A stretch of 22,939 nucleotides of DNA from a virus (taxonomy: Duplodnaviria; Heunggongvirae; Uroviricota; Caudoviricetes), in IMG/VR virus record IMGVR_UViG_2671181100_000006, positions 1-22,939 of that record, one strand, 5' to 3'. The notes beneath the pieces were generated by a model. It had not been told where the DNA came from and did not search any database. It saw only the letters and a list, made by a program, of their open reading frames with translations. How positions within the stretch are numbered: position 1 is the first letter of the stretch; every line of letters begins with the position of its first letter. Positions 1 through 14,665 of this stretch are shown here, piece after piece. Position numbers and translations under genes: made by a program.

Positions 1-1167
1 GTGGCCCTTAGTGATACCAAACTCCGTAGCATCAATGCTAAGCCATACAGCGGCGCAGCTGAGGTCACAGATGGTGACGGGCTAAGTGTACGCATAACTC
101 CCACAGGCACGATCACATTCCAGTTTCGTTATCGCTGGAACGGTAAGCCCGTTCGCCTCTCCATTGGCCGCTATCCCGCTATGTCTCTCAAGGAGGCGCG
201 CGTTGTCGTCGGTGAGATGCGCGAATTGTACCTCAAGGGACTAAACCCGAAAAATTATTTTGCCAAAGAAGATGGCGAGCTGACTCTAAAAGAGTGCCTG
301 GATCAGTGGTGGAGCAAGTATGTTGAAACGCTGAAGCCGAACACTCAGACGCTGTACAAGTCAGTTGTGTACAACACGATGTACACAGAATTCCCGGACG
401 CTCCGGTAGTAAACATTCCTGTTTCGGCATGGGTGCGTTTCTTTGATAAGCAGGAAAAGAAGAACAGCAAAAAGGCCAGGGTGCTTCTTCTACAGCTACG
501 TTCCGTCATGAACTGGTGTATCAGCCGCCAGTTGATCCCATCGTGCGAGGTCCTGAAGCTTAGCGTTAAGACCATTGGCAAAAAACCTGATGTGGGTAGC
601 CGTGTTCTCACGTATACCGAATTGGCAAAAATCTGGCTGGCGCTGGAGAACAACAAGATCGTTACCTCCAACAAGGTGCTTCATCAGCTGCTTTTGCTTT
701 GGGGAGCCAGGCTATCAGAGCTGCGTCTAGCTACCGCCAGCGAATTCAACATGGATGATCTTATCTGGACGACGCCAGGAGAGCATTCCAAGATGGGTAA
801 CGTTATCCGTCGACCGGTGTTCGATCAGGTGAAACCTTTTGTTGAAAGACTCCTCAATGCAGGAAACGATGTTCTGTTTCCTGGCCAGGAACTGGACAAG
901 CCTATAGATCGCTCGTCAGCAAATCTCTATATGAAAAAATTAAGGGATAAAATTGATATACCGGAATGGCGAACCCACGACTTCAGGCGCTCGCTTGTGA
1001 CGAATTTATCAGGGGAAGGGGTTATGCCCCATGTCACCGAAAAAATGTTGGGGCATGAACTGGGGGGCGTGATGGCGGTGTATAACAAACATGATTGGCT
1101 TGATGAGCAGAAAGAAGCATATCAATTATATGCAGACAAAATTTTATGGTACGTTAAGAAATTATGA
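1..1167 (+). CDS. int: Tyrosine recombinase / phage integrase, P4-type with N-terminal DUF4102-like arm-binding domain
   Basis: 388-aa ORF beginning with GTG at window position 1. The N-terminus (MALSDTKLR...TDGDGLSVRITPTGTITFQFRYRWNGK...) matches the characteristic start of P4-family integrases; the C-terminus carries catalytic-region motifs (HDFRRS...GH...Y). The true start could lie upstream of the window, but the N-terminus looks complete. Confidence 0.85.
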   Translation: MALSDTKLRSINAKPYSGAAEVTDGDGLSVRITPTGTITFQFRYRWNGKPVRLSIGRYPAMSLKEARVVVGEMRELYLKGLNPKNYFAKEDGELTLKECLDQWWSKYVETLKPNTQTLYKSVVYNTMYTEFPDAPVVNIPVSAWVRFFDKQEKKNSKKARVLLLQLRSVMNWCISRQLIPSCEVLKLSVKTIGKKPDVGSRVLTYTELAKIWLALENNKIVTSNKVLHQLLLLWGARLSELRLATASEFNMDDLIWTTPGEHSKMGNVIRRPVFDQVKPFVERLLNAGNDVLFPGQELDKPIDRSSANLYMKKLRDKIDIPEWRTHDFRRSLVTNLSGEGVMPHVTEKMLGHELGGVMAVYNKHDWLDEQKEAYQLYADKILWYVKKL

Positions 1168-1225: not shown

Positions 1226-2539
1226 ATGAGCGGTGGGGTTGAGCTTAATATAGATGTCATGAAAGCACTAAGGTGGCTTGCAGAAACGACTACTGACCCT
1301 CAAGGATTTTCCGAGAGATTGGAAGTCGCTCAGGATAACTATATTAAAGAAACATCAAAGAAGGTGAATTTTGGTGCCCCGTTTGACAAAAGTTGGTATG
1401 GCGATGATGTTGTCGCTGGTTTTTTTTCGCAAGCGAAGTCTTTAATTGATAATCGACGAGCATTTGAAATATCTACCGCGTCACAAATCATTCCTTGGGT
1501 TAAACAATTAGGTCAAAACGTAAAGATTCTTAATGAAATATCAGGAGCTAAAGAGCGGGCTAAAAGAATGCTCGATAGCACCAGTGTTTATCCAGATACA
1601 GCATTGTTTGAATTAATACTTGCAGGGAATTATGCCTCAATGGGATATGAGGTTGAGTTTATTCCTGAACGAAAGGGAATTGCAAAAACCCCGGAATTTA
1701 AATGTAGTTATGATGGCGGAGTGGAGTTTTTTGTTGAATGTAAAAGACTCCAAAAAGGGTCATATGCAATCCAGGAAGAACATACACACTTAATCAGAGC
1801 CCATTTGGCAGAACTTCGAATCCATTCTAAAAGGATGAGTGTCTGGATGGATGTGACCTATAAAACTGAAGTTAAAGAGACTCCTGATAATTATCTTTTG
1901 AATCATTTAAGTAACTATTATGGGAAAGATTACTCCTGGGATGATGATTTTGGTGTTGGATTTGTAAAAGCAGTGAATTTAAATTCGGCAAAATATGATG
2001 TGGAAGTTAACGGTTCACTTTCGTTTCATAGTAAACTAGCGAGGTTACTGAAAGGTAATCCGATTGGTGATGATTTTTATAATATCTTTGCGTCTGGTAG
2101 GCCTGATGAGCGTGATCAACGGTTTATTTCAAAAATTAAATACGCATCTTTGTTGACATGGCGTTGTATTAATGAAAAATCTTTGGATTGTCGTTCTCGG
2201 CATATTAAAAGCACATTGGCTGAAATAGAAAAACAAATTTCTAATAATGGGCTTGGTGTTGGTCATGTTGCAATAGATGCTGATATTCAAAAGGATGTTG
2301 CAGATAAGCGGCGTGAGAAAAATCTTGAGGTTACGAAATCATTTAAGCTTGAGTCAAAGCTTGTACGGTTAAATATTCATTACCTTGTCCAACGTATAGA
2401 AGAAAGTCATTCTTGGATGGTTGATGAAACTCTTGACTATTTTTATACCGATAAGCTCATAGAGTATTTTATTCCAGCTGTTCAAATATTTCCTGATGCC
2501 GATGAATTTAACAACGACCTGCCAGGTTGGCATCAATGA
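1226..2539 (+). CDS. Hypothetical 437-aa protein; AT-rich cargo gene between int and xis; possible PD-(D/E)xK-like nuclease core (speculative)
   Basis: Long uninterrupted ORF with RBS GAGGAAATGAT before the ATG. Codon usage is conspicuously A/T-rich compared with the flanking integrase and early-operon genes. No family recognised by eye. Segment ...GYEVEF...CSYDGGVEFFVECKRL... has an E/D...D...ExK arrangement. Confidence 0.7.
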   Translation: MSGGVELNIDVMKALRWLAETTTDPQGFSERLEVAQDNYIKETSKKVNFGAPFDKSWYGDDVVAGFFSQAKSLIDNRRAFEISTASQIIPWVKQLGQNVKILNEISGAKERAKRMLDSTSVYPDTALFELILAGNYASMGYEVEFIPERKGIAKTPEFKCSYDGGVEFFVECKRLQKGSYAIQEEHTHLIRAHLAELRIHSKRMSVWMDVTYKTEVKETPDNYLLNHLSNYYGKDYSWDDDFGVGFVKAVNLNSAKYDVEVNGSLSFHSKLARLLKGNPIGDDFYNIFASGRPDERDQRFISKIKYASLLTWRCINEKSLDCRSRHIKSTLAEIEKQISNNGLGVGHVAIDADIQKDVADKRREKNLEVTKSFKLESKLVRLNIHYLVQRIEESHSWMVDETLDYFYTDKLIEYFIPAVQIFPDADEFNNDLPGWHQ

Positions 2540-2579: not shown

Positions 2580-2765
2580 CTATGAATGTTTATTTATTCC
2601 TCCTTCATCTATCCAGCGGGTAACTGCTTTTCTACTATAACGAGTAGGATATGTTAGAACGGGTTGTGGAAAACCATGTTCTTTCCGTAATCTCCAAACG
2701 GCTGTTTTTTTCTTGCCCAACAGGTTAAAAACTTCCTGCTCTTCCATAAAATCATTCGCAGTCAT
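2580..2765 (-). CDS. xis: AlpA/Xis-family excisionase-like DNA-binding protein
   Basis: 61-aa basic protein (MTANDFMEEQEVFNLLGKKKTAVWRLRKEHGFPQPV...RWIDEGG) with the helix-turn-helix signature typical of AlpA/excisionase proteins partnering P4-type integrases. GAGGT RBS upstream. Confidence 0.7.
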   Translation of the reverse strand: MTANDFMEEQEVFNLLGKKKTAVWRLRKEHGFPQPVLTYPTRYSRKAVTRWIDEGGINKHS

Positions 2766-2787
2766 AAATTACCTCAATAATTCATTT

Positions 2788-3345
2788 TTACGCCCGAATC
2801 AAACGCTGCCAGATTGCGGAAACGTATTTAGCCTGGTGTTTGGCATCAGCAAGCGCGTTATGCATATCGCCCTCAAACGGTATGTCGCGGCGCGGATTGA
2901 TGCCAATCGCTCGACCTAATTCAACGATTGTTCGGACATCACGATCATTCCAAAATTTCCATATGCAGGGCATATACTCACGGTCATAGCTGGCCCGAAG
3001 GATTACATTGTCAAACGTAGCGCCATTACCCCAGACCTGAACTTTTTCTGGGTCGGCGTTATCACGTATGAAGCAATTCAAATTGCTCAATGCAGTAACA
3101 AGATTCATAGCCGCGTCTTTATCGCAAATGGCCTTTCGGGCCTCTTCGCTTTGCTGCATCCACCAAATAATCGTTTCAGGGTCAGGAATGGCACCGCCGT
3201 CTACTGCGCTTTTAAGGCTGACTACTCTGTAGAATTCCTCTCCGAGTTCGCCAGTTGAGGGCTCAAAAAAAACCGCACCGATGGAGACGATAGGGGCGTT
3301 TGGTTTATTGCCCATTGTTTCGAGGTCGATCATGAGGTTATTCAT
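2788..3345 (-). CDS. DnaQ-like DEDDh 3'-5' exonuclease (phage early exonuclease)
   Basis: Motifs IDLETMG (D-x-E), FDNVIL and HNALADA (H-x4-D). Start placed at the internal ATG (MNNLMIDLE...) preceded by AGGAG. Start overlaps the stop of the upstream gene (ATGA). Confidence 0.75.
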   Translation of the reverse strand: MNNLMIDLETMGNKPNAPIVSIGAVFFEPSTGELGEEFYRVVSLKSAVDGGAIPDPETIIWWMQQSEEARKAICDKDAAMNLVTALSNLNCFIRDNADPEKVQVWGNGATFDNVILRASYDREYMPCIWKFWNDRDVRTIVELGRAIGINPRRDIPFEGDMHNALADAKHQAKYVSAIWQRLIRA

Positions 3346-3725
3346 TTTTTCTCCTGCTGCGGTGCCGCTGGCAATGCGCATACTTCAACCGCTTTTTGAT
3401 AAATGAGTTTGATTGTCGGCCAGTCGATGGTCTGGTCTTCATGCCAGTCACCTCGCCCCTCACAATCGCCACAGCCGTCACCGTCACATTCAGGACAGAT
3501 GACCACACGGGGAATGCTGAACTCACCAGATAAAGCGTACTTTGCGCCGTTTTCGGCAGTCAGTTTCTTCGGCACCATCACGTAACCATCCCGAATTACA
3601 GGAGGGTTGCCAACTTTGCGGCGCTCCCTATCCAAGTCTGTTTGCAACTGAATCACCCAGCGAGCGAGTTCACCTTTTTCACCGGATTCAAGACGTAAAT
3701 CATCCAAACGATATTTATCAATCAT
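3342..3725 (-). CDS. Hypothetical protein with Cys-rich cluster (CPECDGDGCGDCEGRG), possible zinc ribbon
   Basis: ORF on the track is 3342-3782. I place the start at the internal ATG (MIDKYRLDD...) to minimise overlap with the upstream gene; start is uncertain. Confidence 0.5.
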   Translation of the reverse strand: MIDKYRLDDLRLESGEKGELARWVIQLQTDLDRERRKVGNPPVIRDGYVMVPKKLTAENGAKYALSGEFSIPRVVICPECDGDGCGDCEGRGDWHEDQTIDWPTIKLIYQKAVEVCALPAAPQQEKK

Positions 3726-4386
3726 TGCTGTTATCCTCACAGCAGTGGTGCCGCCCCTCTGGGTCAGTGGATACATGTCCACAGATATCGCACTCTATTT
3801 CATCCAGCACTACCGACGCTAGCTGCTCTTTGATGTGCAATCGCGGCTCACCATCTTTCGGCTCAGGCCACACCCGCGCCTTATTCACCGCTAGTTTTTC
3901 AATCATCGCCTTAGTGATTTGCTCGTCAGTGATACCGGCGCGGCGTTGGGCATCCCATAGCAGAAACTGCAAATCGGCCCACTCGCTGAGGTCGCCTGGT
4001 GCTGCTGCGGCTTCCAGCGCTTCTTTGCTTAAGTGTTTCAGTGGACCAATCGGGCCGACATTACCAAAGGTGGCCTGAGACCACGCGGTGTGCTCGCGGC
4101 GAACGTGCTCGCGGTCCGGCGCTGGCTGCGGTATGGCGTAGAGTTGCGCACCAAAGTCAGGAAGTTCGCCAGTGACCTGGACGAACTTTTGTTTACCTCC
4201 GTCAATTCCTAGCGGGTAGTAAGCTCTAATCTCTGCCACCGGCTCACTGTCCATTTCGGCCAGCGCGATGCGAGCCAGCTCCTCGGCCTCTTCAGCTGGC
4301 AGCATGACGTTGCTTCCGGCTCCGTAGGTTTCACGCCATGACTTAATTTTTTCCAGACGTTCTCTGGTTATGATTGATTGGGTCAT
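3718..4386 (-). CDS. MazG-like nucleotide pyrophosphohydrolase-type protein (DUF550 / dATP-dGTP pyrophosphohydrolase-like)
   Basis: 222 aa with AAGGAG RBS. C-terminal region (...SKEALEAAAAPGDLSEWADLQFLLWDAQRRAGITDEQITKAMIEKLAVNKARVWPEP...) resembles MazG-type all-alpha NTP pyrophosphohydrolase segments seen in prophage proteins. Assignment from memory, not a search. Confidence 0.5.
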   Translation of the reverse strand: MTQSIITRERLEKIKSWRETYGAGSNVMLPAEEAEELARIALAEMDSEPVAEIRAYYPLGIDGGKQKFVQVTGELPDFGAQLYAIPQPAPDREHVRREHTAWSQATFGNVGPIGPLKHLSKEALEAAAAPGDLSEWADLQFLLWDAQRRAGITDEQITKAMIEKLAVNKARVWPEPKDGEPRLHIKEQLASVVLDEIECDICGHVSTDPEGRHHCCEDNSND

Positions 4387-5456
4387 TAGCTGGACTCCTT
4401 ATCATTAGTTACAGATAAGTTTTTATTCACGATGGCATCCATCAATCGTGATGCAGCAGCCTTCTGGGCAGAGACATTGGCAATGACCGTTGGCCTGGAT
4501 TTCTCGCAGCTGGCGCAAATACCATCCCATGATGAAATGAGGAAGAAATCTTCACGATCGGCAATGCCGGTATTCATTACCAGGTCCTCAATCATCAGCG
4601 TGACCCCGCGAACTCCCCGGCCTTCACTTAACCTCTGTACTGCGTAGCCGAAGGCGTTAATCATCACAGCATGGAACTGGATGTACTCGCGTTTGTACTC
4701 AGCCTGATTCGTACCTCGGCGAATATCATCTAAACCAGTCAGCATCAGCCAAGCATTCCACAACCCCTCAAGATCATCCTGTGAGCAGGAATCTGAAAAT
4801 TTTGCCGTGGCATCACTAAGGGCTTTGAAGCTGACCCACTTATCACTTTTCGCAGGAACGACGTTATGCTCAAAATCGGTGACTTCAGAAAAGACGTCGT
4901 GTGAACTGATAAAACTGACCATCTCCTGCGCGTTCTTATCGCGCCCGTTATAGGCCATGTTGATAGCCGCAGATGGCTTCGAAACATTGTTGTTAATGTC
5001 GGAAAAGAACTGCTGCCGTGTTTTCAACGAGAGCTTATGTGTGAGCATTAGTGGTACGTGGATTGGTTCGCCAACTGTGCGGCAAAATTCGGCGATCCCC
5101 GCTGCACGGTGCTGGCCGTCGAAAAGCTTAATTTCTGCATCCATAGGGAAGCGCACAACACCAACGTTGGTATTGCCGAATTCCTGAAACTCAATCTCAG
5201 AGTTACAGTTACCGACCAGCGGTGGGATAATGAAGGGCTCTTTATTTTCGTGAGCATTAACCAGATATTCATAGAATTTCTTAGCACGCGCTGGGTTAAT
5301 TTCACGCTGAGAACGTTCTAAAGTATCTCCGTAATTATCACTGGCGAGGACGCGTGCCAAGGTTCGTGCTGGCACTGTCATCATAAGGACAATCGCTCCG
5401 CCCTGAACGCCGCGAGACGCAGGGAACTCAAAGAAATAATCTCCAACTATGCTCAT
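4386..5456 (-). CDS. DGQHR-domain protein (DndB-like, ParB/Srx superfamily)
   Basis: Contains the literal DGQHR motif (KLFDGQHRAAGI). Start placed at the ATG (MSIVGDYFF...) rather than the upstream GTG on the ORF track. Stop overlaps the start of the downstream gene by 1 nt. Confidence 0.7.
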   Translation of the reverse strand: MSIVGDYFFEFPASRGVQGGAIVLMMTVPARTLARVLASDNYGDTLERSQREINPARAKKFYEYLVNAHENKEPFIIPPLVGNCNSEIEFQEFGNTNVGVVRFPMDAEIKLFDGQHRAAGIAEFCRTVGEPIHVPLMLTHKLSLKTRQQFFSDINNNVSKPSAAINMAYNGRDKNAQEMVSFISSHDVFSEVTDFEHNVVPAKSDKWVSFKALSDATAKFSDSCSQDDLEGLWNAWLMLTGLDDIRRGTNQAEYKREYIQFHAVMINAFGYAVQRLSEGRGVRGVTLMIEDLVMNTGIADREDFFLISSWDGICASCEKSRPTVIANVSAQKAAASRLMDAIVNKNLSVTNDKESS

Positions 5457-5587
5457 GCTACCCACCACTCAATAAACATGCAGATACCAACGGTTACTAC
5501 GGCAATAAGCACCCAGCAGATCACATCGAACAAGGCGGCGAACCGACGTAGGGTGTATTTGCTATAATTCTCATGATCAATATTCAT
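5453..5587 (-). CDS. Small hydrophobic peptide (44 aa, predicted single transmembrane helix), not on the ORF track
   Basis: My own translation of the minus strand: MNIDHENYSKYTLRRFAALFDVICWVLIAVVTVGICMFIEWWVA. Its ATG overlaps the ParB-like stop (ATGA) and its TGA overlaps the DGQHR start (ATGA), suggesting translational coupling. Confidence 0.4.
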   Translation of the reverse strand: MNIDHENYSKYTLRRFAALFDVICWVLIAVVTVGICMFIEWWVA

Positions 5588-6369
5588 ACCGCCTCCCCAA
5601 TCACCCAACGAAGTGCGCTTGCATACTCACCCTCGGCTGATTCAAGGGCTTTGATGATTTCTTTGCGGGTTTTCAGGCGCGGCTTTGCCTCGCCGAGGAT
5701 CTGACGCTGACGCCGGGCTTTTTCATGGCCGGTTGTGCCAGCAGTTGCCGCTTCGATTTCAGAGACCTTCTCCCGCTGCTCTTCTGGTTTAAGCGATGCC
5801 AGCTGACGCGCCTGGGTAACGGTGACCGTTCCGGACTCCACTGCATCGCGAACAGCCTGGGTGGCATCCAGCAGAGACAGAGTTGCGCGTACGGTCTGGA
5901 CACTCACGCCAAACATCAGCGCTAAATCGTCCTCGTCGTGCCCGCGTTCCAGCGCATCAGCCATTTTCTTTGCTCGGCCCAGTGGCGTATCTGCCTGGCG
6001 GATTTCGTTAGCACTTACCATCGCCTGCGCCATGCGAACGGCGGAGCCACGTTTAGCGACTGCTGGAACCAGTAACGGTTCTTTGCCCTCTTTCGACAGA
6101 CGCTTGTTGGCTTCCAGTGTATGGCGCACACGCTGGCGACCATCGACTACACAAGACAGCCCTGTCTCCGGGTCTTTCCAGACGATAATCGGCTCAAGAA
6201 CGCCCTGGTCCATGATGTTCAGCACCATTGCCTCGCTGATAGGCAGGTGGATACGCTCATCGTAAAGCGGGTGCGTTTTGTCGGTAACCAGGTGCAGGTT
6301 TTCAGGTTCGAACGTCAAAACGTTCGTTTTGCCACTCGCGCCATATACCAGCTTTGAGTCTTTAGCCAT
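5584..6369 (-). CDS. ParB-like N-terminal domain protein (ParB/Srx nuclease-like fold plus helix-turn-helix)
   Basis: Motif ...GVLEPIIVWKDPETGLSCVVDGRQRVRHTLEA... matches the ParB box region (GERRxRAA-like). A downstream HTH-like segment (DLALMFGVSVQTVRATLSLL) follows. Confidence 0.7.
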   Translation of the reverse strand: MAKDSKLVYGASGKTNVLTFEPENLHLVTDKTHPLYDERIHLPISEAMVLNIMDQGVLEPIIVWKDPETGLSCVVDGRQRVRHTLEANKRLSKEGKEPLLVPAVAKRGSAVRMAQAMVSANEIRQADTPLGRAKKMADALERGHDEDDLALMFGVSVQTVRATLSLLDATQAVRDAVESGTVTVTQARQLASLKPEEQREKVSEIEAATAGTTGHEKARRQRQILGEAKPRLKTRKEIIKALESAEGEYASALRWVIGEAV

Positions 6370-6668
6370 TAGACAGCCTCCGGATTGCTGGTGGATGTCG
6401 TTGAGATACTCTTCAGATCGCGCATTGCTTCCAGTACGTGCATATTGCTGCGGTTTTTTGTGTGACGCTCAACAATTCGATCGCATTCTTTCGCCCAGGA
6501 AATAACTTCTTCCTTCATAGCGTCACGTTCTTTACATGCCTGCCGAAGGGTAATATTCGAAACATCGAGCATTGTTGCCAGCTCTTTAATAAGTTCTGAA
6601 TTTGCAGGAGGCATTGTTTTAGCTGCCTCAAAGGCATCTTTAATTAACTGCTGTACTGTTTTTCCCAT
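6369..6668 (-). CDS. Hypothetical early protein (99 aa)
   Basis: ORF with GGAG RBS; stop overlaps the ParB-like start codon. No family recognised. Confidence 0.5.
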   Translation of the reverse strand: MGKTVQQLIKDAFEAAKTMPPANSELIKELATMLDVSNITLRQACKERDAMKEEVISWAKECDRIVERHTKNRSNMHVLEAMRDLKSISTTSTSNPEAV

Positions 6669-6755
6669 TTTTTATTTCTCCAACTGACGCGCTGCAACGC
6701 GTTTTAGGGTGCAGCAACCCAACCCATGAGAATGGGGTAATTGCTGCTGTTCTAA

Positions 6756-7673
6756 TCAGGCTGCTGGTTTTTGTTCTTCGGGCTCTTTGTAGGCGAGCAG
6801 ATCACAAAGCTGGTTAATTACTTTACAGAACTGGAACATGTCCGTACCTGCCTGGTGACGCCAGCGGTAGGCTTTGTCGTCATCATCAGAATAATCATTA
6901 TCCTTGGTATCGATCCGCCGGAAATGGAACTTATCTGTAAGCAGAAAAGAGACGCCGCAGCCTCTTAATTCCATGTTATCGACGATAAAACCTGTGTTCA
7001 GGCTCTCCAGAATTTCACTGGTAACGGAAGTGTGTTCCGCAGAGTAGCGAATAACTTCTTTCTGTTCTGCCAGGCGGGATAGCTGGACATAATCACCGAC
7101 CTCAAACCCGGCAAAGGCTGATTCTTCGCCGTCCAGATGGTTTTTAAGGCGCGTTGTCAGGCCGTTTTTGATATCACTGATGTTGATCGTGACTGTTTTT
7201 ACTGAGCCAATCACTTTAACCAGCATCGCCCCGACTAAATTGGCAATATTTTTATTGGCGGAATTAATGATCAGCAGATTTTCTTCAGTGTTATACAGGA
7301 CCAGGATCAGAGACGACTTGATGAATGCCTGTTTGCAGAGCTGAACCTTAGCATCCTGGATAATGTTGTTACGGTCAGCGCGCTTCAATTTCTGACCACA
7401 CGCATTTTCGATGCGCTGGATACGCTCATTGGCTTCTTTCATTACGACGTGCTGGGGGATTATTTTCTCATCGCGGCGAACCACGATTGCATAACCGCCA
7501 GTAATTGGCGTAACCAGCTCGCCAGTAATCGGATTAGGGACGAAGGAAGCCCGCGCGAACTCCGTTTCTGTAAGTTCAGAGTAGGGCAATTCCTGCAGGT
7601 GCCCTTCAACCGCTTCAATGCTGGGCAAAGTAGCCCGATAGACAATGGCGTTACGTAACTTTGATATTTTCAT
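6756..7673 (-). CDS. rdgC: Recombination-associated protein RdgC homologue
   Basis: 305 aa, similar in length to E. coli RdgC (303 aa). N-terminus (MKISKLRNAIVYRATLP...) resembles the RdgC N-terminus (…FKNLMVYRL…). GAGGA RBS. Confidence 0.65.
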   Translation of the reverse strand: MKISKLRNAIVYRATLPSIEAVEGHLQELPYSELTETEFARASFVPNPITGELVTPITGGYAIVVRRDEKIIPQHVVMKEANERIQRIENACGQKLKRADRNNIIQDAKVQLCKQAFIKSSLILVLYNTEENLLIINSANKNIANLVGAMLVKVIGSVKTVTINISDIKNGLTTRLKNHLDGEESAFAGFEVGDYVQLSRLAEQKEVIRYSAEHTSVTSEILESLNTGFIVDNMELRGCGVSFLLTDKFHFRRIDTKDNDYSDDDDKAYRWRHQAGTDMFQFCKVINQLCDLLAYKEPEEQKPAA

Positions 7674-8333
7674 TTCTGTTTCCTCTGCAAAGGATTAGTT
7701 AGTTATCTCCACACAACGGAAAGAGCACTGAAGCACTGGAAACTCACTTGACTAACACAGTGCTTTTTCCTGTTGTGTGCCGGGCTTCCACCGGCTCCCA
7801 TCTGTTTTTAAAGCCACTCAGATATCGTCTGGGCTGTGCCGTCTACTTCCGGCTGTCACTGCCGTCGAGAGTGCTGGCAGCTCACTGACCTGATAACTCC
7901 CAGGATCAACTGGAGTGGTTGTTATCGCTACCAAAGCGCCACTGTCCAGGACATTTAAAAGGACCGTCTCCAAGTGGTAACTCTTCCAGTCCCGCTAAAC
8001 ACTCGTGTAAATGCTTAACGTGAATGGCTGATATCCTCGTCTCTTCCGAGGCGTCACACCTTTTCGCCGCGCTGGTGGGGCGCACGTCGTGCCTGAACAC
8101 TTAGCTTGCACATTCCGGTTGTTCTGAGAGGCATGGATAAAGGGACTCTCAGGCCGCTAACGCTGCATGTGCCATACAACGGTCATGAATATTGCCGTTC
8201 ACAACTGGAAGCGCACTCCTTCAGTTACAAACCGATCCCCACCGGAAAGAAGGGGAATGCGCTTCCATGTTGTGTTCTGTTCATCCTTGTCCGTAAGTTT
8301 CGTCATGTGCCGACGAGTAGAAGATAATCATAA

Positions 8334-8370
8334 ATTGCGAGTAACGCAATAGATGTGTGCGTAAAACGCA
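8334..8370. promoter_or_regulatory. Candidate left operator (OL) with two inverted-repeat sites, ATTGCGagtaaCGCAAT and TGCGtaaaaCGCA; probable pL region
   Basis: Palindromic GCG-N5-CGC sites read directly from the sequence, of the same type as three sites in the cI-cro intergenic region. Located just beyond the repressor-gene terminator, where a leftward early promoter is expected. Confidence 0.4.
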
Positions 8371-8380
8371 AATTTAGGGC

Positions 8381-8406
8381 GAAAAAAAAGGCCTCGAATG
8401 AGGCCT
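8381..8406 (-). terminator. Rho-independent terminator downstream of the repressor gene (minus strand)
   Basis: Hairpin AGGCCTC-gaat-GAGGCCT followed on the minus strand by an 8-nt U-tract (A8 on the plus strand at 8382-8389). Confidence 0.6.
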
Positions 8407-8424
8407 AGTTTATGATGATGAATG

Positions 8425-9120
8425 CTATCCATGCCGTTTAAAGGACTGAGACTGGCTTATTAAAACCTTTCCATAGATATAGAATCTGTGTTCATTCTCT
8501 TTAGTTATATTCCATTCTCTATAACGAGGGTTATCAGAGATGACTAGCAGTTGGTCTGGTATCATCTGCAGGCGTTTAACATAAACTTTTCCATCAAAAC
8601 CAAAGACGTAAATCCCATCCCCATCGAACTCATTGATAGTTACGTCCACAAAGATTAGGTCGCCAGGCTCAATCGTTGAGGCCATGCTATCACCGCGAAC
8701 GTTGATGACCTTTACTCCAGATGGAGTCCTGCCACCAAACATTGCCAATGCCTGATCATTGCTGAACTCGATAGCATGAATGACATCTATGACGTCACTA
8801 CCGTGTATATGTCCTGCCCCGGCGCTTGCGCTCACATCAAGTACCTCGACTCTGTATACATCCACATCCTTTACGGGAGATGCATATTTTTCACTGTTTA
8901 TATGTACAGTAGTATCATTTTCGTCAGAGGTAAATAGGTCAGGTACACTTACGCTTAAAGCTTGAGCAAGTCGGTTAAGTGTCTGTTCTGAAAACTGCTT
9001 TTGTTTACCAGTTTCAAGCCTGGAAATATTGGCAGCATCAACGCCCACAGCTTCTGCAAGCTCTGCGATTTTAATGTTCTTCGCTAAGCGAAGTTGTCGT
9101 ATGCGAGATCCTATTTTCAT
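8425..9120 (-). CDS. cI: CI-like prophage repressor (XRE-type HTH plus S24 LexA-like autopeptidase domain)
   Basis: N-terminal HTH (IRQLRLAKNIKIAELAEAVGVDAANISRLETG) and C-terminal S24 motifs (GDSM...VKRL). Divergent from cro across an operator-containing intergenic region. Confidence 0.85.
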   Translation of the reverse strand: MKIGSRIRQLRLAKNIKIAELAEAVGVDAANISRLETGKQKQFSEQTLNRLAQALSVSVPDLFTSDENDTTVHINSEKYASPVKDVDVYRVEVLDVSASAGAGHIHGSDVIDVIHAIEFSNDQALAMFGGRTPSGVKVINVRGDSMASTIEPGDLIFVDVTINEFDGDGIYVFGFDGKVYVKRLQMIPDQLLVISDNPRYREWNITKENEHRFYIYGKVLISQSQSFKRHG

Positions 9121-9141
9121 TCACTCATTACATGTTGTTTT

Positions 9142-9202
9142 TGCGTTTCGTGCAAAGCAACTTGCGCAATTCGCTAGCGTGGAATAACATGCGTAATACG
9201 CA
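9142..9202. promoter_or_regulatory. Candidate tripartite right operator (OR) with divergent pRM/pR region
   Basis: Three GCG-N5-(C/T)GC palindromes: TGCGtttcgTGCA (9142-9154), TGCGcaattCGCT (9163-9175) and TGCGtaataCGCA (9190-9202), between divergent cI and cro starts. Possible pR -35 TTGCGC / -10 TAACAT with 17-bp spacing. Confidence 0.5.
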
Positions 9203-9217
9203 AAAATAGGAGGCGTT

Positions 9218-9460
9218 ATGCAATCACCATTAAGAAAATTGCGAAAATCGCATGGCATGACCTTATTGCACGTTGCAACCGGGGTACAGGTAGATCCTGC
9301 AACGTTGAGCCGCATTGAAAGATGCGAGCAAGTCCCATCTGTCGAACTGGCGGAGAGATTAGCCAAGTTCTTTAGAGGAGAAATAAGCGAATTACACATT
9401 TTGTACCCAAGTCGCTATCAAACAGATGACGTACCAAGTGCAAATAATCGTACTGCTTAA
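9218..9460 (+). CDS. cro: Cro-like HTH transcriptional regulator
   Basis: 80-aa protein with XRE-type HTH (MTLLHVATGVQVDPATLSRIERCE). AGGAGG RBS. Divergent from the repressor. Confidence 0.75.
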   Translation: MQSPLRKLRKSHGMTLLHVATGVQVDPATLSRIERCEQVPSVELAERLAKFFRGEISELHILYPSRYQTDDVPSANNRTA

Positions 9461-9494
9461 GCGGTTATTCGATAACTACAAAAGGTAAATCAAG

Positions 9495-9956
9495 ATGGTA
9501 GAGCCAAACCTCAAAGAAGCCGTCAAAGCGATGTGCAAAGCATATCCAGGTGGGCGCGAAGCAATGGCTGGCGCACTGGGAATGACGGTGACGCAGTTTA
9601 ATAACAACCTTTACGAGAAAAACGGCTGTCGTTTCTTCGAAGTCAGCGAGCTGGAAGCGATGGAAGACATTTCCAACACGTCGTTACTGGCTGATTACTT
9701 CGCTCGCCGCCGTGGTGCTCTGCTGGTGGATGTTCCGCACCTGGAAGAGCTGGATCGCGTGGACTTGTTCAGCCGGGCAATGCGTACCTCTGCCGCCAGA
9801 GGACAGGTTGATCAGATTATCGAACAGGCACTTGAGGATGGGGTAATCGAAAGACATGAAGCTGAAGAAATCATGGTGCATCACCGCCGCCACTTGGCTG
9901 CGCGTGAAGAAGAGATTGCGGCAATTATCACGTTATTTGCACGCAAAAAGAAGTGA
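9495..9956 (+). CDS. CII-like / YdaT-like early regulatory protein (family assignment tentative)
   Basis: 153-aa ORF immediately downstream of cro, in the canonical cII position. Resemblance to prophage CII/YdaT-type proteins is from memory only. Confidence 0.45.
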   Translation: MVEPNLKEAVKAMCKAYPGGREAMAGALGMTVTQFNNNLYEKNGCRFFEVSELEAMEDISNTSLLADYFARRRGALLVDVPHLEELDRVDLFSRAMRTSAARGQVDQIIEQALEDGVIERHEAEEIMVHHRRHLAAREEEIAAIITLFARKKK

Positions 9957-10193
9957 CGCCAGCGAGTTGCAGCTCCTGGCGTCGTGGCGTGTCGTTATCA
10001 GTGGAGATTACTAACGCATGAACAGTTTATCAACACAATACCGCAGGTCGCAACTTGTAGCGCGGCCAGTTCCTGGTGGAGCAGGACCGGTGCAGTTCGT
10101 GTATGGGGTAAGAGTACCAGGCGGTTTCGAACCTGTCTGCTACCAGTTTGCTCAGTGGGTGGTAGGGGACTTTAACGGCCAGGCGGAGAAAGT

Positions 10194-10373
10194 ATGCGAG
10201 AGCTCAACCGATGGTTCAGAGATCACTACGGCGTCCCGGTCAGGGTCATACGCTGGGAGCCCCAGACACAGCGCGTTATATACCTGCGTAAAGGGTACGA
10301 GCATGAATGCTTTAGCCCCCTTGAGCAGTTCAGACGTAAATTCAGAGAAATAAAGGACGATCATGAGCACTAA
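10194..10373 (+). CDS. Small hypothetical protein (59 aa), not on the ORF track
   Basis: My own translation: MRELNRWFRDHYGVPVRVIRWEPQTQRVIYLRKGYEHECFSPLEQFRRKFREIKDDHEH. GGAGAA RBS; G/C-rich third codon positions; stop overlaps the start of the O-like gene. It overlaps the track ORF 10018-10353 in another frame, and only one of the two is likely real. Confidence 0.35.
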   Translation: MRELNRWFRDHYGVPVRVIRWEPQTQRVIYLRKGYEHECFSPLEQFRRKFREIKDDHEH

Positions 10374-11331
10374 ATTAACAGGATACGTCTGGGACGCTTG
10401 CGCATCTTCGGGGATGAAACTATCCAGCGTGGCAATCATGGCGCGCCTGGCTGACTTCAGCAACGATGAGGGTGTTTGCTGGCCTTCTATCGCGACCATA
10501 TCCCGTCAGATTGGCGCTGGTGAAAGTACTGTCAGAACGGCGATAACTGCGCTTGAGAAAGAGGGATGGCTCACCCGTACGCAACGCCGCAATGGCAACC
10601 GTAATGCATCGAACGTCTACCAGCTCAACGTTTCCAAACTACAGAAAGCGGCATTTTCTCACCTGTCAGTTTCTGACACGTCAAAATCTGACACATCAAA
10701 ATCTGAACCGTCAAAATCTGATGCGTCAAAAATTGACCCCTCAAAATTTGAGGCGTCGGAATCCACCAAAAAAACCAGTTTTGACCCGTCAGAATCTGGG
10801 GGGGATCCGTCAGTAAAATCAACTACTGATCCATCAGATATAAATCCTTCTTGTCCGGACGCTTCGCAACCGGACGAACAGGGCTCTGCTGATGAATTTC
10901 TGTCACGACATCCTGACGCGGTGGTGTACAGCGCTGCAAAGCGGCAGTGGGGCAGCCAGGACGATTTAACCTGCGCCCAGTTCATTTGGGGAAAAATTAT
11001 CAGCATGTACGAACTGGCTGCTGAAAGTGATGGTGAGGTAGTTCGCCCTAAAGAACCAAACTGGACCGCATGGGCGAATGAGGTTCGCCTGATGGTGATG
11101 CAGGACGGGAGAACCCATAAGCAAATTTGCTCACTGTTCAAGCGCGCCAACAAAGATTCGTTCTGGTGTAAAAACGTACTCAGCCCGTCGAAGCTTCGGG
11201 AAAAATGGGATGAGCTGTCGTTAAAACTATCTGCTCCACTCAATAGCTCCCGCCAGGAGTCGTCCATTTCGCGAGCCAGCTTCGATGGGGTTGATTACTC
11301 ATTGCCAGAAAACTCGGGGTTCCGCACATGA
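10363..11331 (+). CDS. Replication initiator (lambda O-like) with N-terminal winged-helix DNA-binding domain and internal origin iterons
   Basis: N-terminal HTH-like region (SVAIMARLADFSNDEGVCWPSIATISRQIGAGESTVRTAITALEKEGWL). Low-complexity linker encoded by tandem 15-bp DNA repeats. Position after cII matches O. Confidence 0.65.
   Translation: MSTKLTGYVWDACASSGMKLSSVAIMARLADFSNDEGVCWPSIATISRQIGAGESTVRTAITALEKEGWLTRTQRRNGNRNASNVYQLNVSKLQKAAFSHLSVSDTSKSDTSKSEPSKSDASKIDPSKFEASESTKKTSFDPSESGGDPSVKSTTDPSDINPSCPDASQPDEQGSADEFLSRHPDAVVYSAAKRQWGSQDDLTCAQFIWGKIISMYELAAESDGEVVRPKEPNWTAWANEVRLMVMQDGRTHKQICSLFKRANKDSFWCKNVLSPSKLREKWDELSLKLSAPLNSSRQESSISRASFDGVDYSLPENSGFRT
10666..10755 (+). repeat. Putative replication origin: six tandem ~15-bp iterons (TCAAAATCTGAnnnn) followed by an A/T-rich tract, embedded in the initiator ORF
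   Basis: Units read directly: tcagtttctgacacg / tcaaaatctgacaca / tcaaaatctgaaccg / tcaaaatctgatgcg / tcaaaaattgacccc / tcaaaatttgaggcg, then caccaaaaaaaccagtttt. Same layout as ori-lambda inside gene O. Confidence 0.6.
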
Positions 11332-12137
11332 GTAAGCCATTTCTCAAATGGGCTGGTGGAAAGTATACCCAGCTGGCTGACCTGTTCGTGCATATCCCGG
11401 CAGGGAAACGCCTGATAGAGCCATTCGTTGGTGGTGGGTCGGTATTCCTGAACAGCGAAAAGCACGCAGATTACCTGCTGGCGGACGTTAACCCAGACCT
11501 GATTAATCTGTATCAGATGTTAGCGGTGGTGCCGGATGAAGTGGAATTAAAGGCCCGCTGGATGTTTGAGCACATGCGGTCACCAGATGGCTATGAGCTG
11601 ATCCGTTCCGAGTTCAACGCTCAGACGCTGGATGCTACTGAACGCGCAGCTGCATTCCTGTATCTCAACCGGCATTGTTTCAATGGCCTGATGCGCTACA
11701 ACCAGGCGAATAAGTTCAATGTGGGCTGGGGAGGCTACAAGGCCCCGTATTACCCGATGGATGAGATGAAAGCCTTTGCGGCTATGGCGCATAACTGCGT
11801 ATTCATGACCGCTGATTACCGTCGGACAATCAGCCTGGCCGGGAAAGGGGATGTGGTTTACTGCGATCCGCCTTACGAACCGATGCCGGGAACAGCCGGA
11901 TTCACTGCCTACGCCGCTGGTGGGTTTAACTGGGAGAACCAGGTAGACCTGGCGAAGCAATGTGTATCAGCCTTTCACCGTGGGGCTCGGGTAGTGATTT
12001 CTAACTCATCCGCCCCGAAGGTTCTCGACCTGTACCGGGAGCATGGTTTTAACCTGCAATTCATCAAAGCGCGCCGTTCGATCTCCTGCAAAAGCAGTAC
12101 GCGGGAAGTCGCAAAAGACGTTGTAGCGATCCTTTAA
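11328..12137 (+). CDS. dam: DNA adenine N6-methyltransferase (Dam-like, D12 class), orphan phage methylase
   Basis: Motifs KWAGGK, FVGGGSV (AdoMet binding) and DPPY (catalytic). No adjacent restriction endonuclease gene. Confidence 0.85.
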   Translation: MSKPFLKWAGGKYTQLADLFVHIPAGKRLIEPFVGGGSVFLNSEKHADYLLADVNPDLINLYQMLAVVPDEVELKARWMFEHMRSPDGYELIRSEFNAQTLDATERAAAFLYLNRHCFNGLMRYNQANKFNVGWGGYKAPYYPMDEMKAFAAMAHNCVFMTADYRRTISLAGKGDVVYCDPPYEPMPGTAGFTAYAAGGFNWENQVDLAKQCVSAFHRGARVVISNSSAPKVLDLYREHGFNLQFIKARRSISCKSSTREVAKDVVAIL

Positions 12138-12146
12138 GGGGGCTAA

Positions 12147-12524
12147 ATGAAACTGACTTTACCATTTCCACCGAGCGTAAATAGTTACTGGCGCGCTCCG
12201 AGCAAGGGACCGCTGAAAGGCAGGCATCTGGTAAGCGAGACAGGGCGCAAGTTCCAGCAGGCAGCGAGAGCGGCGATTATTGAGCAACTGCGGGCCGCTC
12301 CCCGGCCATCCTCTGATCTGGCCGAGGTTCACATTGTGTTGTATCCGCCGGATGAGCGCCGTCGGGATATCGATAACTACAACAAAGCGCTGTTCGATGC
12401 CCTGACTCTAACAGGCGTCTGGGAAGACGACAGTCAGGTTAAGCGCATGCTGGTGGAGTGGGGGAACATCGTGAAGAAAGGGAAAGTAGAAATCACTATC
12501 CGTCGTTTTCGTGCAGCTGCCTGA
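12147..12524 (+). CDS. rusA: Holliday junction resolvase RusA
   Basis: 125-aa protein close in sequence and length to E. coli RusA (LPFPPSVNSYWR..., ...RRRDIDNYNKALFDALT...). Confidence 0.9.
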   Translation: MKLTLPFPPSVNSYWRAPSKGPLKGRHLVSETGRKFQQAARAAIIEQLRAAPRPSSDLAEVHIVLYPPDERRRDIDNYNKALFDALTLTGVWEDDSQVKRMLVEWGNIVKKGKVEITIRRFRAAA

Positions 12525-12536
12525 CGTGGAGATGAT

Positions 12537-13517
12537 ATGAGAGCACTACTAACCCCTGAGATTGCCCCACGCATGGGCGTTGTTCTGCTTCGCCCAGGCG
12601 CTGATCTCATGCCGATGTTCAGGAGAGGGCGGGTACTGATTGAGCCTGCACCGGAAAAATACAGCGACTACGCAACCGGCGCTATCCCTCCCGCCACGCA
12701 GCCACTGGCAGAAGACCCGGTTTTGAAGCCAGTCTTCGAAAACAAAGACGTCATTCTGCGCGCGGGTGGTATCAGCTCGCTGGAGGCCGAGCTGGAGCGT
12801 CGTTTTGAATGCCAGTATCCGCATGGCTCGTGGCACAGCGAAAATTTTACGCTGTTCCGGCATGAGCCTGGCAGCATCCGCCTTTGCTGGGCCTGCGATA
12901 ACCTGGTGCGTGATCAGTACACAGAGACGCTGGCAGGCATTGCGCGTGGGAACCTGGTATCCTGGTTGATAACGGTCATCCGCTCACAGCTGGGGTTCAA
13001 CGAAGACCATCAACTGACGATCCCAGAGTTGTGCTGGTGGCTGGTAATAAACAATCTGGCGCACGTCATCCCTGAATCGCTGGCCCGGAAAGCCCTGCGA
13101 TTGCCGGAAATAAAGCATCAACCGGTGATGAAGGAGAGCGATATTGTGCCGGAGCCAGCGGCGAGCGAAGTGGTGCAGAAAAAGATTCTCGGTCTTCGCG
13201 TAGATCCTGAAACGCCGGAATCATTTATGCTGCGACCAAAGCGCCGCCGCTGGGTAAACGAGAGCTGGACGCGCTGGGTTAAGTCTCAGTCGTGTGTCTG
13301 CTGTAACAAACAAGCAGATGATCCCCATCACCTGATAGGCCACGGACAAGGTGGAATGGGAACAAAAGCGCATGACCTGTTTGTGTTGCCGCTTTGCAGA
13401 GCGCATCACGACGAGTTGCACGCTGACACCGTGGCATTTGAGGAGAAGCACGGCTCACAGCTGGAGCTGCTGTTTCGATTTCTGGATCGTTCGCTGGCAA
13501 TTAGCGTGCTGGCATAG
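12537..13517 (+). CDS. Phage protein with C-terminal DUF968-like / HNH-like Cys-His motif
   Basis: C-terminus CVCCNKQADDPHHLIGHGQGGMGTKAHDLFVLPLCRAHHDELH resembles HNH/DUF968 zinc-binding regions common in lambdoid nin regions. Assignment from memory. Confidence 0.5.
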   Translation: MRALLTPEIAPRMGVVLLRPGADLMPMFRRGRVLIEPAPEKYSDYATGAIPPATQPLAEDPVLKPVFENKDVILRAGGISSLEAELERRFECQYPHGSWHSENFTLFRHEPGSIRLCWACDNLVRDQYTETLAGIARGNLVSWLITVIRSQLGFNEDHQLTIPELCWWLVINNLAHVIPESLARKALRLPEIKHQPVMKESDIVPEPAASEVVQKKILGLRVDPETPESFMLRPKRRRWVNESWTRWVKSQSCVCCNKQADDPHHLIGHGQGGMGTKAHDLFVLPLCRAHHDELHADTVAFEEKHGSQLELLFRFLDRSLAISVLA

Positions 13518-13530
13518 TGGAGAACGCATA

Positions 13531-14109
13531 ATGATTAACCCGTCCGAGGTTGGAAAAGCTGGTGAAATGGTCAGGCTGAAAACGCTGGAGGCCATCTGGA
13601 TTCAGGGGAAGCTGCGCATGTGGGGCCGCTGGTCTTACATCGGCGGCGGTAGTGGCGGCAATATGTTTAACCAGTTACTGGCTTCCGGGAAAGTCACTAA
13701 AACAGCCATCAACGAAGCATTACGCCGGATGAAGAAGTCCGGCATCTCGAAGCCAGAGCTTGAGGCGTTTTTTCGTGAAATACTCGCGGGGAAAAACAAA
13801 AGCGGCCTGGCCTTCTGTACAGACGATGAAGGACTGCTGATTGATAAGGTACTGGGGGCAGTCCTCATTACGGGTGGTCATAAAGAGCTATACCACCTGC
13901 TGGTGGAGCATTACCGGTTACGGAAGAGCAAACGCCGCATAGCGGAAGAGCTCTATGAAAAGCATCCAGACTGGTGCTTTATGACATGCAGACGAAGAGT
14001 TGATACATGGCTAAGTTTGGCAGAATCGATGCTGTACGCACCAATGTGTGACGCATTCGGCACAAATGGCGACAGATTTTACTTGCAAAGTGAGCCAGAA
14101 ACTGCTTGA
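13531..14109 (+). CDS. Q: Late-gene antiterminator Q (phage 82-type family)
   Basis: Start placed at the ATG (MINPSEV...) with GGAG RBS, in frame with the longer track ORF. Motif KLRMWGRW resembles the ERWGAW signature of phage 82-type Q proteins. Followed by a terminator. Confidence 0.65.
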   Translation: MINPSEVGKAGEMVRLKTLEAIWIQGKLRMWGRWSYIGGGSGGNMFNQLLASGKVTKTAINEALRRMKKSGISKPELEAFFREILAGKNKSGLAFCTDDEGLLIDKVLGAVLITGGHKELYHLLVEHYRLRKSKRRIAEELYEKHPDWCFMTCRRRVDTWLSLAESMLYAPMCDAFGTNGDRFYLQSEPETA

Positions 14110-14154
14110 ATTGTGATAGGCTCGGGACGTTAAAGCGAACTGAGCAGCAGAACC

Positions 14155-14186
14155 AAAAAAAACCCGCTTAAAGGCGGGTTTTGTGC
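14155..14186 (+). terminator. Rho-independent terminator after Q (possible tR' or insulating terminator)
   Basis: A8 run, hairpin ACCCGC-ttaaag-GCGGGT, then TTTTG. Confidence 0.6.
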
Positions 14187-14260
14187 GAAAAATAGCCACT
14201 CCAAGATGGCCCATTAAAGCATGGTAAAATACGTGTTAACCCCACAAAGAGGAGTTAGAC

Positions 14261-14500
14261 ATGGCTATTACCCTGCATCAAAAAGAAATCATGATTCTCA
14301 TGACGGACCCCAACTTAAAAGTGCCGGTCCAACACACCAACTTCCCTTTTGAGCATCCATACAAAATTGATTCGGCTATAGAGCAGCTATATCGGATGGG
14401 ATACATTACAGCAATACAGTCGAAATCTGATTCTAGTTGGCTCGCCACTTCAATCACACCAAAAGGTTATGTCTTTCTTAACGAGGCAGGGTTGGTTTAA
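14261..14500 (+). CDS. Hypothetical small protein (79 aa), moron between Q and the lysis cassette
   Basis: Strong RBS AGAGGAG. Upstream extended -10-like element TGGTAAAAT at about 14228-14240. Followed by its own terminator. Confidence 0.6.
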   Translation: MAITLHQKEIMILMTDPNLKVPVQHTNFPFEHPYKIDSAIEQLYRMGYITAIQSKSDSSWLATSITPKGYVFLNEAGLV

Positions 14501-14531
14501 TAGAATTTCAGCAACTGTGTATATCAAAAGT

Positions 14532-14556
14532 AAAACCCCGCTTCGGCGGGTTTTTT
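14532..14556 (+). terminator. Rho-independent terminator
   Basis: AAAACCCCGC-ttcg-GCGGG followed by TTTTTT. Confidence 0.65.
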
Positions 14557-14665
14557 CATTTATGGCCCAGGCTAAAAATTGCATATTAACCGTGAAACGC
14601 ATAAGCCTGCGGCCTGAATTCTTTCCCCTCGTTCTGAGAGGATTCACAGCAATAGAGGGGGACCG

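Follow-up and report, generated by a model that had tools for sequence, protein, structure and literature searches.

Do five closely packed genes in the early operon of a prophage form an unnamed multi-gene system, or have they merely come to lie next to each other? The question is raised by a stretch of 22,939 nucleotides (nt) from a virus of the class Caudoviricetes (IMG/VR record IMGVR_UViG_2671181100_000006; hereafter the window), which covers part of a prophage only. Between positions 3342 and 6369, genes for an orphan ParB-like protein, a 44-residue membrane peptide, a DGQHR-domain protein, a MazG-like (DUF550) protein and a Cys-rich protein follow one another, and all five are present as open reading frames (ORFs) on the minus strand. 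The original prediction took them for one co-expressed module with a plausible role in DNA modification, anti-restriction or nucleotide-based counter-defence. This is not borne out, as the genes assort independently in viral contigs, at distant loci and in Escherichia coli genomes. Mosaicism rather than a new system follows from this independent assortment, and we therefore regard the five genes, with good probability, as separate accessory cassettes that lie side by side in the early-left operon as a result of ordinary phage mosaicism, with no multi-gene system involved.

Two sets of viral contigs bear on the question. The first comprises 77 contigs that encode a ParB-like protein at least 92% identical to that of the window and extend at least 1.5 kb downstream. 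The DGQHR gene is present in 22 of these, the 44-residue peptide in 39, the DUF550 gene in 38, the Cys-rich ORF in 11 and a gene for a 99-residue protein, located upstream of the ParB-like gene, in 54. The 44-residue peptide follows the ParB-like gene with or without a DGQHR gene, and the observation that the peptide and the 99-residue gene often accompany the ParB-like gene, more than the others do and independently of DGQHR, holds up. The second set was selected for a DGQHR protein at least 70% identical to ours (81 contigs). The ParB-like gene lies directly upstream in 36 of them; other genes found upstream encode a small zinc-ribbon protein, a YqaJ-type exonuclease, RecT, Erf and others. 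Downstream, the DGQHR gene is followed by a gene for an unassigned 283-residue protein (27 contigs), by a DUF550 fusion (15) or by a methyltransferase.

The picture is the same at larger distances and in complete genomes. None of 40 distant DGQHR loci (down to 31% identity) has a ParB-like gene of the window type, and a single one has a neighbour with an HTH_ParB domain. Out of 5,426 complete E. coli genomes, 365 match the stretch comprising the ParB-like and DGQHR genes; eight of these matches cover both genes, and the rest are nearly all to a single gene. The DGQHR gene is found in about 6-7% of the complete E. coli genomes, and the full 4.1-kb arrangement in just one of the 5,426.

The tight spacing of the genes had been taken as an argument for co-expression as one unit. 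The start/stop overlaps between positions 3342 and 6369 are indeed there (4, 4, 1 and 8 nt, of the ATGA or TAATG type), and the start codons agree with those in RefSeq, the DUF550 gene excepted. The overlaps also cross the claimed borders, since upstream the 99-residue gene shares 1 nt with the ParB-like gene, and downstream a 4-nt overlap joins the Cys-rich ORF to that of a 3'-5' exonuclease. The borders of the five-gene stretch are arbitrary. Furthermore, overlaps of 1-4 nt join unrelated genes elsewhere in the window (replication protein and Dam methyltransferase, 11328-11331; holin and endolysin, 15320), and for this reason the overlaps say little about a common function. A coupled, compact layout is usual for phage operons.

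The predicted signals for transcription likewise point to a larger unit. Two operators of the left-operator (OL) type lie beside the presumed leftward promoter PL, the position of which is taken from the operator repeats and not from a promoter scan, and an intrinsic terminator parts the cI transcript from the early-left genes. No strong internal terminator was found between 6668 and 2580, which makes co-transcription likely. Taken together, the operators, the cI terminator and the lack of a strong terminator leftward mean that the genes from rdgC to the xis-like gene are most simply read as a single repressor-controlled early-left operon. Upon induction or infection, a leftward transcript from the operators next to cI would read through rdgC to the xis-like gene, and the short start/stop overlaps would keep the translation of neighbours coupled. 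Co-expression of the five genes is thus likely, but the unit spans nine genes and not five, and a shared function is not implied.

Several points weigh against the view that the genes are unconnected cassettes. A fair number of contigs (22-36), although a minority, have the ParB-like gene next to the DGQHR gene, and a facultative interaction is possible. The sampling is not phylogenetically independent and each contig set was picked by similarity to one gene, so that the fractions given above are descriptive and carry no formal test. The tblastn and blastn searches could miss a strongly diverged ParB-like partner. Finally, a scan for consensus promoters gave no minus-strand match for PL.

The positions of all features discussed here are collected in the following table.

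Features of the window (positions in nt; for each, the strand and the evidence or a remark)
Feature	Position	Strand	Evidence or remark
Integrase	1-1167	+	ORF/domain scan
437-residue ORF, unannotated	1226-2539	+	low GC (about 36-37%); between int and xis-like gene
Small AlpA/Xis-like helix-turn-helix (HTH) protein	2580-2765	-	final operon gene before int; weak HTH_17 and Phage_Cox matches; phrog_66 excisionase
DEDDh-type 3'-5' exonuclease	2788-3345	-	PF16473 Rv2179c-like E=4e-74; phrog_255; 4-nt overlap with Cys-rich ORF
Cys-rich protein, zinc-finger-like	3342-3725	-	CxxCxGxG pair at residues 77 and 85
DUF550 mosaic protein, 222 residues	3718-4386	-	Ea22-like N-terminal module, MazG-like domain, short Cys-rich tail
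DGQHR-domain protein	4386-5456	-	ParB/Srx-like fold and helical C-terminal half; PF14072 E=3.6e-44; phrog_7901 E=5e-195
44-residue single-pass membrane peptide	5453-5587	-	phrog_2936 E=1e-23; hydrophobic core residues 16-40
Orphan ParB-like protein, 261 residues	5584-6369	-	ParB N-terminal fold and HTH; Pfam HTH_ParB E=1e-10; phrog_1033
99-residue protein	6369-6668	-	phrog_15091 E=1.4e-43; 1-nt overlap with ParB-like gene
RdgC homologue	6756-7673	-	first large operon gene; Pfam RdgC E=3.3e-35; phrog_724
OL-type operators beside presumed PL	8335-8370	-	two TTGCG-N5-CGCAA-type palindromes, matching three copies between cI and cro (9141-9252)
Intrinsic terminator after cI	8389-8406	-	7-bp stem (5 G-C), then T run
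S24/HTH cI repressor	8425-9120	-	
Rightward genes			cro, cII, replication protein, RusA, DUF968, Q-like antiterminator, holins, endolysin, lambda-type terminase, portal
D12-class Dam-like DNA methyltransferase	11328-12137	+	early-right operon; PF02086 E=1.3e-51
Chi sites (span 6387-15982)	6387, 8071, 9722, 11352, 11916, 12449, 13033, 13899, 14696, 15004, 15975	+	

The individual assignments fare better than the module. For the DGQHR protein, TIGR03187 scores 194.9 bits (cut-off 58.85) and PF14072 151.6 bits (cut-off 29.1), and the literal DGQHR motif, at residue 113, is invariant in 24 homologues. Calling the protein DndB-like is justified insofar as PF14072, the DndB Pfam domain, extends over residues 15-281, but the equivalog model TIGR03233 gives only 107 bits against a cut-off of 328, and DndB proper is thereby ruled out as its identity. 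Scans with Pfam, NCBIfam and PADLOC identified no dndCDE, ssp/pbe, dpd or purZ genes among the window ORFs, and neither a DpdA/TGT-like transglycosylase nor preQ0 synthesis domains were found in the window. DpdB of the 7-deazaguanine (Dpd) system is a ParB/DndB-like protein. The AlphaFold2 model of the DGQHR protein has a predicted local distance difference test score (pLDDT) of 81 and consists of a ParB/Srx-like half and a helical half. In a fold search of this model against the Protein Data Bank (PDB), the matches were weak, confined to ParB-N and PadC and without a solved DndB-like structure; the viral models matched were those of DndB-like and GmrSD-like proteins. PDB searches by sequence revealed nothing meaningful for the DGQHR protein, the Cys-rich protein or the 437-residue ORF. 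Functional studies of a phage DGQHR protein were absent from the literature searches made. Judging by its family, it would be a second, unrelated ParB/Srx-fold nucleotide-binding DNA protein, expressed as mobile elements enter the cell, and its most likely role may be tied to DNA methylation or anti-restriction.

The ParB-like assignment stands on the HTH_ParB match, on alignments and on fold comparison. In phmmer searches, Spo0J and Noc align to the protein over residues 49-207 or, at the widest, 47-234, a segment that includes the N-terminal domain and the HTH, and the top Foldseek matches of its low-confidence model (pLDDT 60) are CTP-bound ParB (ParB-CDP), Noc and KorB, with E-values down to 5e-9. 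It thus has an N-terminal ParB/Srx fold followed by a ParB-type HTH, a combination expected of the ParB/Spo0J family. The DGRQRV motif is located at residue 76. In the sequence alignment, GRQRVRH and ANEIR stand at the positions of the ParB nucleotide-binding boxes GERRxRA and ENLQR, with the first Glu of the ENLQR box replaced, and the GRQRVRH and ANEIR residues are invariant or nearly so across 18 family members. The family is uniform in size (roughly 261 residues), with identities of 78% or more among members from Klebsiella, Serratia, Raoultella and E. coli. By family analogy, the protein might act as a nucleotide-gated DNA-binding clamp on phage or host DNA, independently of ParA. Two overlapping palindromes with 7-nt arms (CGAACGTCAAAACGTTCGTTTTG) at 6309-6331, within the 5' end of the ParB-like gene, form the only palindrome cluster near it. 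The neighbouring 44-residue product is, as predicted, a membrane peptide with one hydrophobic span (Kyte-Doolittle values above 2.4 over its hydrophobic core).

The MazG/DUF550 assignment is likewise correct, with PF04447 matching residues 96-190 (E=1.8e-40; 137.5 bits against a cut-off of 23). Acidic metal-binding motifs are found at residues 122 (EALE) and 135 (EWAD), and the tail carries CDIC. The N-terminal module of the protein matches phrog_660 and phrog_3323 and is found in many prophage proteins. The similarity to MazZ of phage S-2L (7ODY) is weak (E=0.03). RefSeq lists the gene as a pseudogene 'missing N-terminus', yet the ORF is uninterrupted and begins with an ATG that overlaps the stop codon of the DGQHR gene; not gene decay but the mosaic N-terminus is probably behind the call. 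The Cys-rich ORF, for which there is no Pfam family, contains the predicted Cys cluster in the form of two adjacent CxxCxGxG motifs. Its residues 47-117 align to the C-terminus of DUF550 fusion proteins in Klebsiella phage ST101-KPC2phi6.3 (MK416017) and at one further locus, and DUF550 and Cys-rich parts make up a single protein elsewhere (302 residues in MK416017, 372 in a further contig). Both ORFs also match the mosaic family phrog_60. On these alignments, the association between DUF550 and the Cys-rich domain appears to be real and holds up. A DUF550 homologue of an Acinetobacter (PurZ) phage has been measured to hydrolyse dATP and dGTP to monophosphates (cited in PMC12884076). By family, DUF550 and the Cys-rich domain would hydrolyse dATP/dGTP-type nucleotides in the same way, and the adjoining exonuclease would trim the 3' ends of DNA.

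It had also been noted that lambda carries its recombination and anti-RecBCD genes where this prophage has the five-gene stretch. Indeed, no gene of this kind was found between int and cI when the families of single-strand annealing proteins, exonucleases and Gam were searched for in Pfam, phrog and NCBIfam. In the one inspected E. coli genome of the major DGQHR lineage, the DGQHR gene directly follows lambda-type bet/exo and a DUF1317 gene and hence is no stand-in for a recombination module. The genome in question, NZ_CP023899.1, represents the commonest E. coli DGQHR lineage (~69% DNA identity), and its prophage is degraded, lies beside icd and has the gene order bet (partial), exo, DUF1317, DGQHR, TraR/DksA-like, DUF4222, xis, int.

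Chi sites offer an explanation for the missing genes. The Chi sequence (GCTGGTGG) occurs 11 times in the window, always on the plus strand and never on the minus strand, with 0.65 sites expected. A lambdoid class termed 'No Rec module, high Chi', with LLS as type phage, has been described as devoid of a recombination module and of a RecBCD inhibitor, enriched in Chi and reliant on host RecBCD (Zheng et al., Genome Res 2025, PMC12315714). The class is delimited by the lack of a recognisable Rec module and by at least eight Chi sites in one orientation with at most six in the other (PMC12315714), and the window alone has both properties, with 11 sites versus 0. As the phage lacks a recombination module and is rich in Chi, it probably relies on host RecBCD, by analogy with this class. 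The same study reports a sporadic occurrence of distant ParB-like genes, RdgC homologues and DnaQ-type nucleases in the early-left regions of lambdoid phages, in many cases close to int or cI, and does not count them among the Rec-module genes (PMC12315714), a description that fits the present locus well.

Could the five proteins nonetheless act together as one coherent counter-defence or DNA-modification system? The tight start/stop overlaps within a single operon would suit such a system, as would the adjacency of ParB-like and DGQHR genes in 36 of the 81 DGQHR contigs and the cooperation of paired ParB_N-domain proteins in some GmrS/GmrSD restriction systems (PMC12373910). However, each gene is frequently found without the others, the complete arrangement is confined to one E. 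coli genome in 5,426, and the overlaps reach unrelated flanking genes and occur throughout the window. PADLOC recognises a generic DndB match, a weak DEDDh match and a very weak mad1 match in the window and nothing else, and we consider one system improbable. A prophage-borne anti-phage defence made up of the DGQHR protein, the ParB-like protein or both, comparable to the ParB_N NTPase domains of GmrSD-type enzymes, would account for the fold matches to GmrSD N-terminal domains and to the HNH-linked DndB-like proteins of giant viruses. Nevertheless, neither protein has a nuclease domain, the genes are placed behind operators under repressor control, which should keep them silent in a lysogen, and the one relevant PADLOC match is to DndB in general, which leaves this explanation very improbable. 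It is extremely unlikely that the ParB-like protein is a true partition protein segregating a plasmid-like form of the phage, as its RefSeq name ('ParB/RepB/Spo0J family partition protein') and its ParB N-terminal fold and HTH might suggest. There is no ParA-type ATPase among the scanned window ORFs (23 kb), a search for the consensus of parS, the Noc-binding site (NBS) and the KorB operator (OB) with up to three mismatches gave nothing repeated or convincing, and none of the palindromes with arms of 7 nt or more is repeated. Moreover, the phage integrates at tRNA-Arg with its own integrase, ANEIR takes the place of the ENLQR box of ParB, and lambdoid ParB-like genes are deemed functionally diverged in a published survey (PMC12315714). 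That the DUF550 gene marks a pathway for 2-aminoadenine (Z-genome) or another non-standard base is a notion with next to no likelihood, even though PF04447 takes its name from the dATP/dGTP pyrophosphohydrolase that PurZ phages have and a weak MazZ match exists. PurZ, DatZ and DpoZ are not in the window, DUF550 is a very common mosaic module of enteric prophages, and the DUF550 proteins of Z-genome phages form a clade of their own (PMC12884076).

A different lead sees the DGQHR protein, alone or with the ParB-like protein, as an aid to the establishment of mobile elements through DNA modification or anti-restriction; we regard it as possible, if on balance doubtful. As a nucleotide-gated DNA binder, the protein might direct, stimulate or regulate an orphan methyltransferase (here the Dam-like enzyme, the sole DNA-modifying enzyme found in the window), or interfere with a defence that recognises modified DNA. 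One or two genes 3' of DGQHR genes lie methyltransferases from five Pfam families (Dam PF05869, MT-A70, D12, N6_N4 and C5), with the methyltransferase start at most 100 nt from the DGQHR stop in 11 viral contigs and at most 1.3 kb away in 21 of 76. Salmonella phage SPN1S and a Vibrio phage both have the order DGQHR, methyltransferase, int, the DGQHR gene of a Pseudoalteromonas phage lies among PAPS-reductase and C5-methylase genes, and fusions of ParB-fold and methyltransferase domains are common in phages. On the plasmid side, a protein search yielded 1,070 plasmids with a DGQHR match, mostly ~43% identical, 886 of which are conjugative. The single IncL/M plasmid that was inspected has its DGQHR gene upstream of mobA/traI, surrounded by radC/JAB, antirestriction and ssb genes, in what we take to be the leading region. 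Anti-defence genes and orphan methyltransferases are enriched in plasmid leading regions (PMC11541004). Against this lead, the DGQHR gene of the window has no methyltransferase next to it, DUF550 being its neighbour, and none adjoins it in the inspected major-lineage E. coli genome either. Of 43 control contigs without DGQHR, eight have a methyltransferase at most 2.5 kb 3' of the ParB-like gene, and the association may therefore partly be a property of the region. A specific DGQHR-methyltransferase link, considered as a finding, is suggestive but weakened by this control, and we have kept it as a hypothesis only. The plasmid copy of DGQHR is often split by IS1, hence dispensable there. The wider proposal that the DGQHR proteins of phages (phrog_7901) and conjugative plasmids form one early-entry family of nucleotide-gated ParB/Srx-fold DNA binders, which work with orphan methyltransferases or counter modification-sensing defences and so protect newly arrived DNA, is rather unlikely. 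A role in DNA modification or anti-restriction, as envisaged in the original prediction, is accordingly not upheld for the five-gene block, and is a reasonable guess, from its recurrent neighbours, for the DGQHR protein alone.

Two further observations concern the DGQHR locus. In contigs L154 and L155 (5902-6507), the slot taken in the window by the DGQHR gene is filled by an MT-A70-type methyltransferase, directly after the ParB-like gene and the peptide. In many plasmid records of pOXA-48 size (63.6 kb), for example NZ_CP063280.1 (30197-32007), the DGQHR homologue is split by IS1B, and because the insertion splits the gene, DGQHR is dispensable for such plasmids.

Returning to the cassettes of this early-left operon, the locus combines known families in a new way, within a kind of mosaic operon and a class of phage that are also known. 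Positions 2580-6668 of the window show 100% identity to the E. coli WP2-S18-ESBL-08 chromosome (NZ_AP021946.1), where the prophage adjoins tRNA-Arg and dsdC and where RefSeq has already named the genes (DGQHR, ParB/RepB/Spo0J, DUF550, 3'-5' exonuclease). As a system the locus matters little, with known families juxtaposed by chance. Its value lies elsewhere. The prophage is another clear example of the Chi-rich class without a Rec module, which explains the missing lambda-type recombination genes. The DGQHR family is widespread in mobile elements, with more than 1,000 plasmid records, many of them of pOXA-48-typical size and with the IS1 split, and its genes often have orphan methyltransferases or anti-restriction genes as neighbours. 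The family would be a sensible choice in screens for anti-defence or establishment functions. It and, to a lesser degree, the orphan ParB-like family retain some interest as candidate early-entry factors of mobile elements.

As a whole, the window is laid out like lambda (int, xis, early-left operon, cI, cro, cII, replication, Q-like, lysis, terminase, portal), and an Rfam scan of its entire length gave zero matches. The 437-residue ORF has no match in Pfam, NCBIfam, PADLOC or the PDB and only a weak one to phrog_37220, and with tblastn, three further contigs yielded homologues of 64-76% identity. The ORF has the appearance of a moron and is possibly a defence gene. A leader of ~650 nt (7673-8330, minus strand) without an obvious N-like ORF separates the OL operators from rdgC. 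It contains two well-paired hairpins (8206-8219/8254-8267 and 7718-7730/7758-7770), neither of them recognised by Rfam, and could be an RNA-based antitermination or regulatory element.

How does the locus compare with known systems? The closest deposited phage is MK416017, with 97.5% DNA identity across the rdgC-to-DGQHR part. Both share the block of rdgC, 99-residue, ParB-like, 44-residue and DGQHR genes, and the annotations given in the phage record are 'Spo0J superfamily', 'DGQHR domain-containing protein' and 'DUF550'; however, MK416017 encodes a single 302-residue DUF550/Cys-rich fusion and no exonuclease, whereas the window has two ORFs and an exonuclease. With DndB, a phosphorothioation regulator, the window protein has the DGQHR motif and the DndB Pfam domain in common, but it scores below the equivalog cut-off, is encoded in a phage early operon and has no sulfur-modification genes nearby. 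The DUF550 protein resembles MazZ and the DUF550 proteins of Z-genome phages in its PF04447 domain, its ExxE and ExxD motifs and its weak similarity to S-2L MazZ, and differs in its fused Ea22-like N-terminus and Cys-rich tail and in a window without PurZ or DatZ. As for the fusions of ParB-fold and methyltransferase domains, DGQHR genes elsewhere adjoin orphan methyltransferases or sit in plasmid leading regions; here, the two genes are separate and not adjacent.

The nearest functional analogy for the phage ParB-like protein may be HerB (YfjB), an orphan ParB-like protein from the leading region of the F plasmid, which binds to the host's chromosome and reprograms transcription immediately upon entry (PMC13370423). 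Both are orphan early proteins of mobile elements with an N-terminal ParB fold and an HTH, and both lack a ParA. However, HerB has 652 residues and includes domains D3 and D4, the latter being its dimerisation core, whereas the phage protein, with 261 residues, has equivalents of D1 and D2 only. Membership of the HerB family is ruled out by the absence of D3 and D4. Only eight plasmid records match the phage ParB-like protein (tblastn, E<=1e-5). With phages of the LLS type, finally, the prophage shares the lambda-like layout, the lack of Rec and anti-RecBCD genes between int and cI, Chi sites on one strand and the presence of ParB-like, RdgC and DnaQ-type genes. It has been suggested for such phages that rdgC may be on the cI transcript (PMC12315714); here, in contrast, rdgC does not appear to belong to that transcript, as it lies behind the OL operators and the cI terminator.

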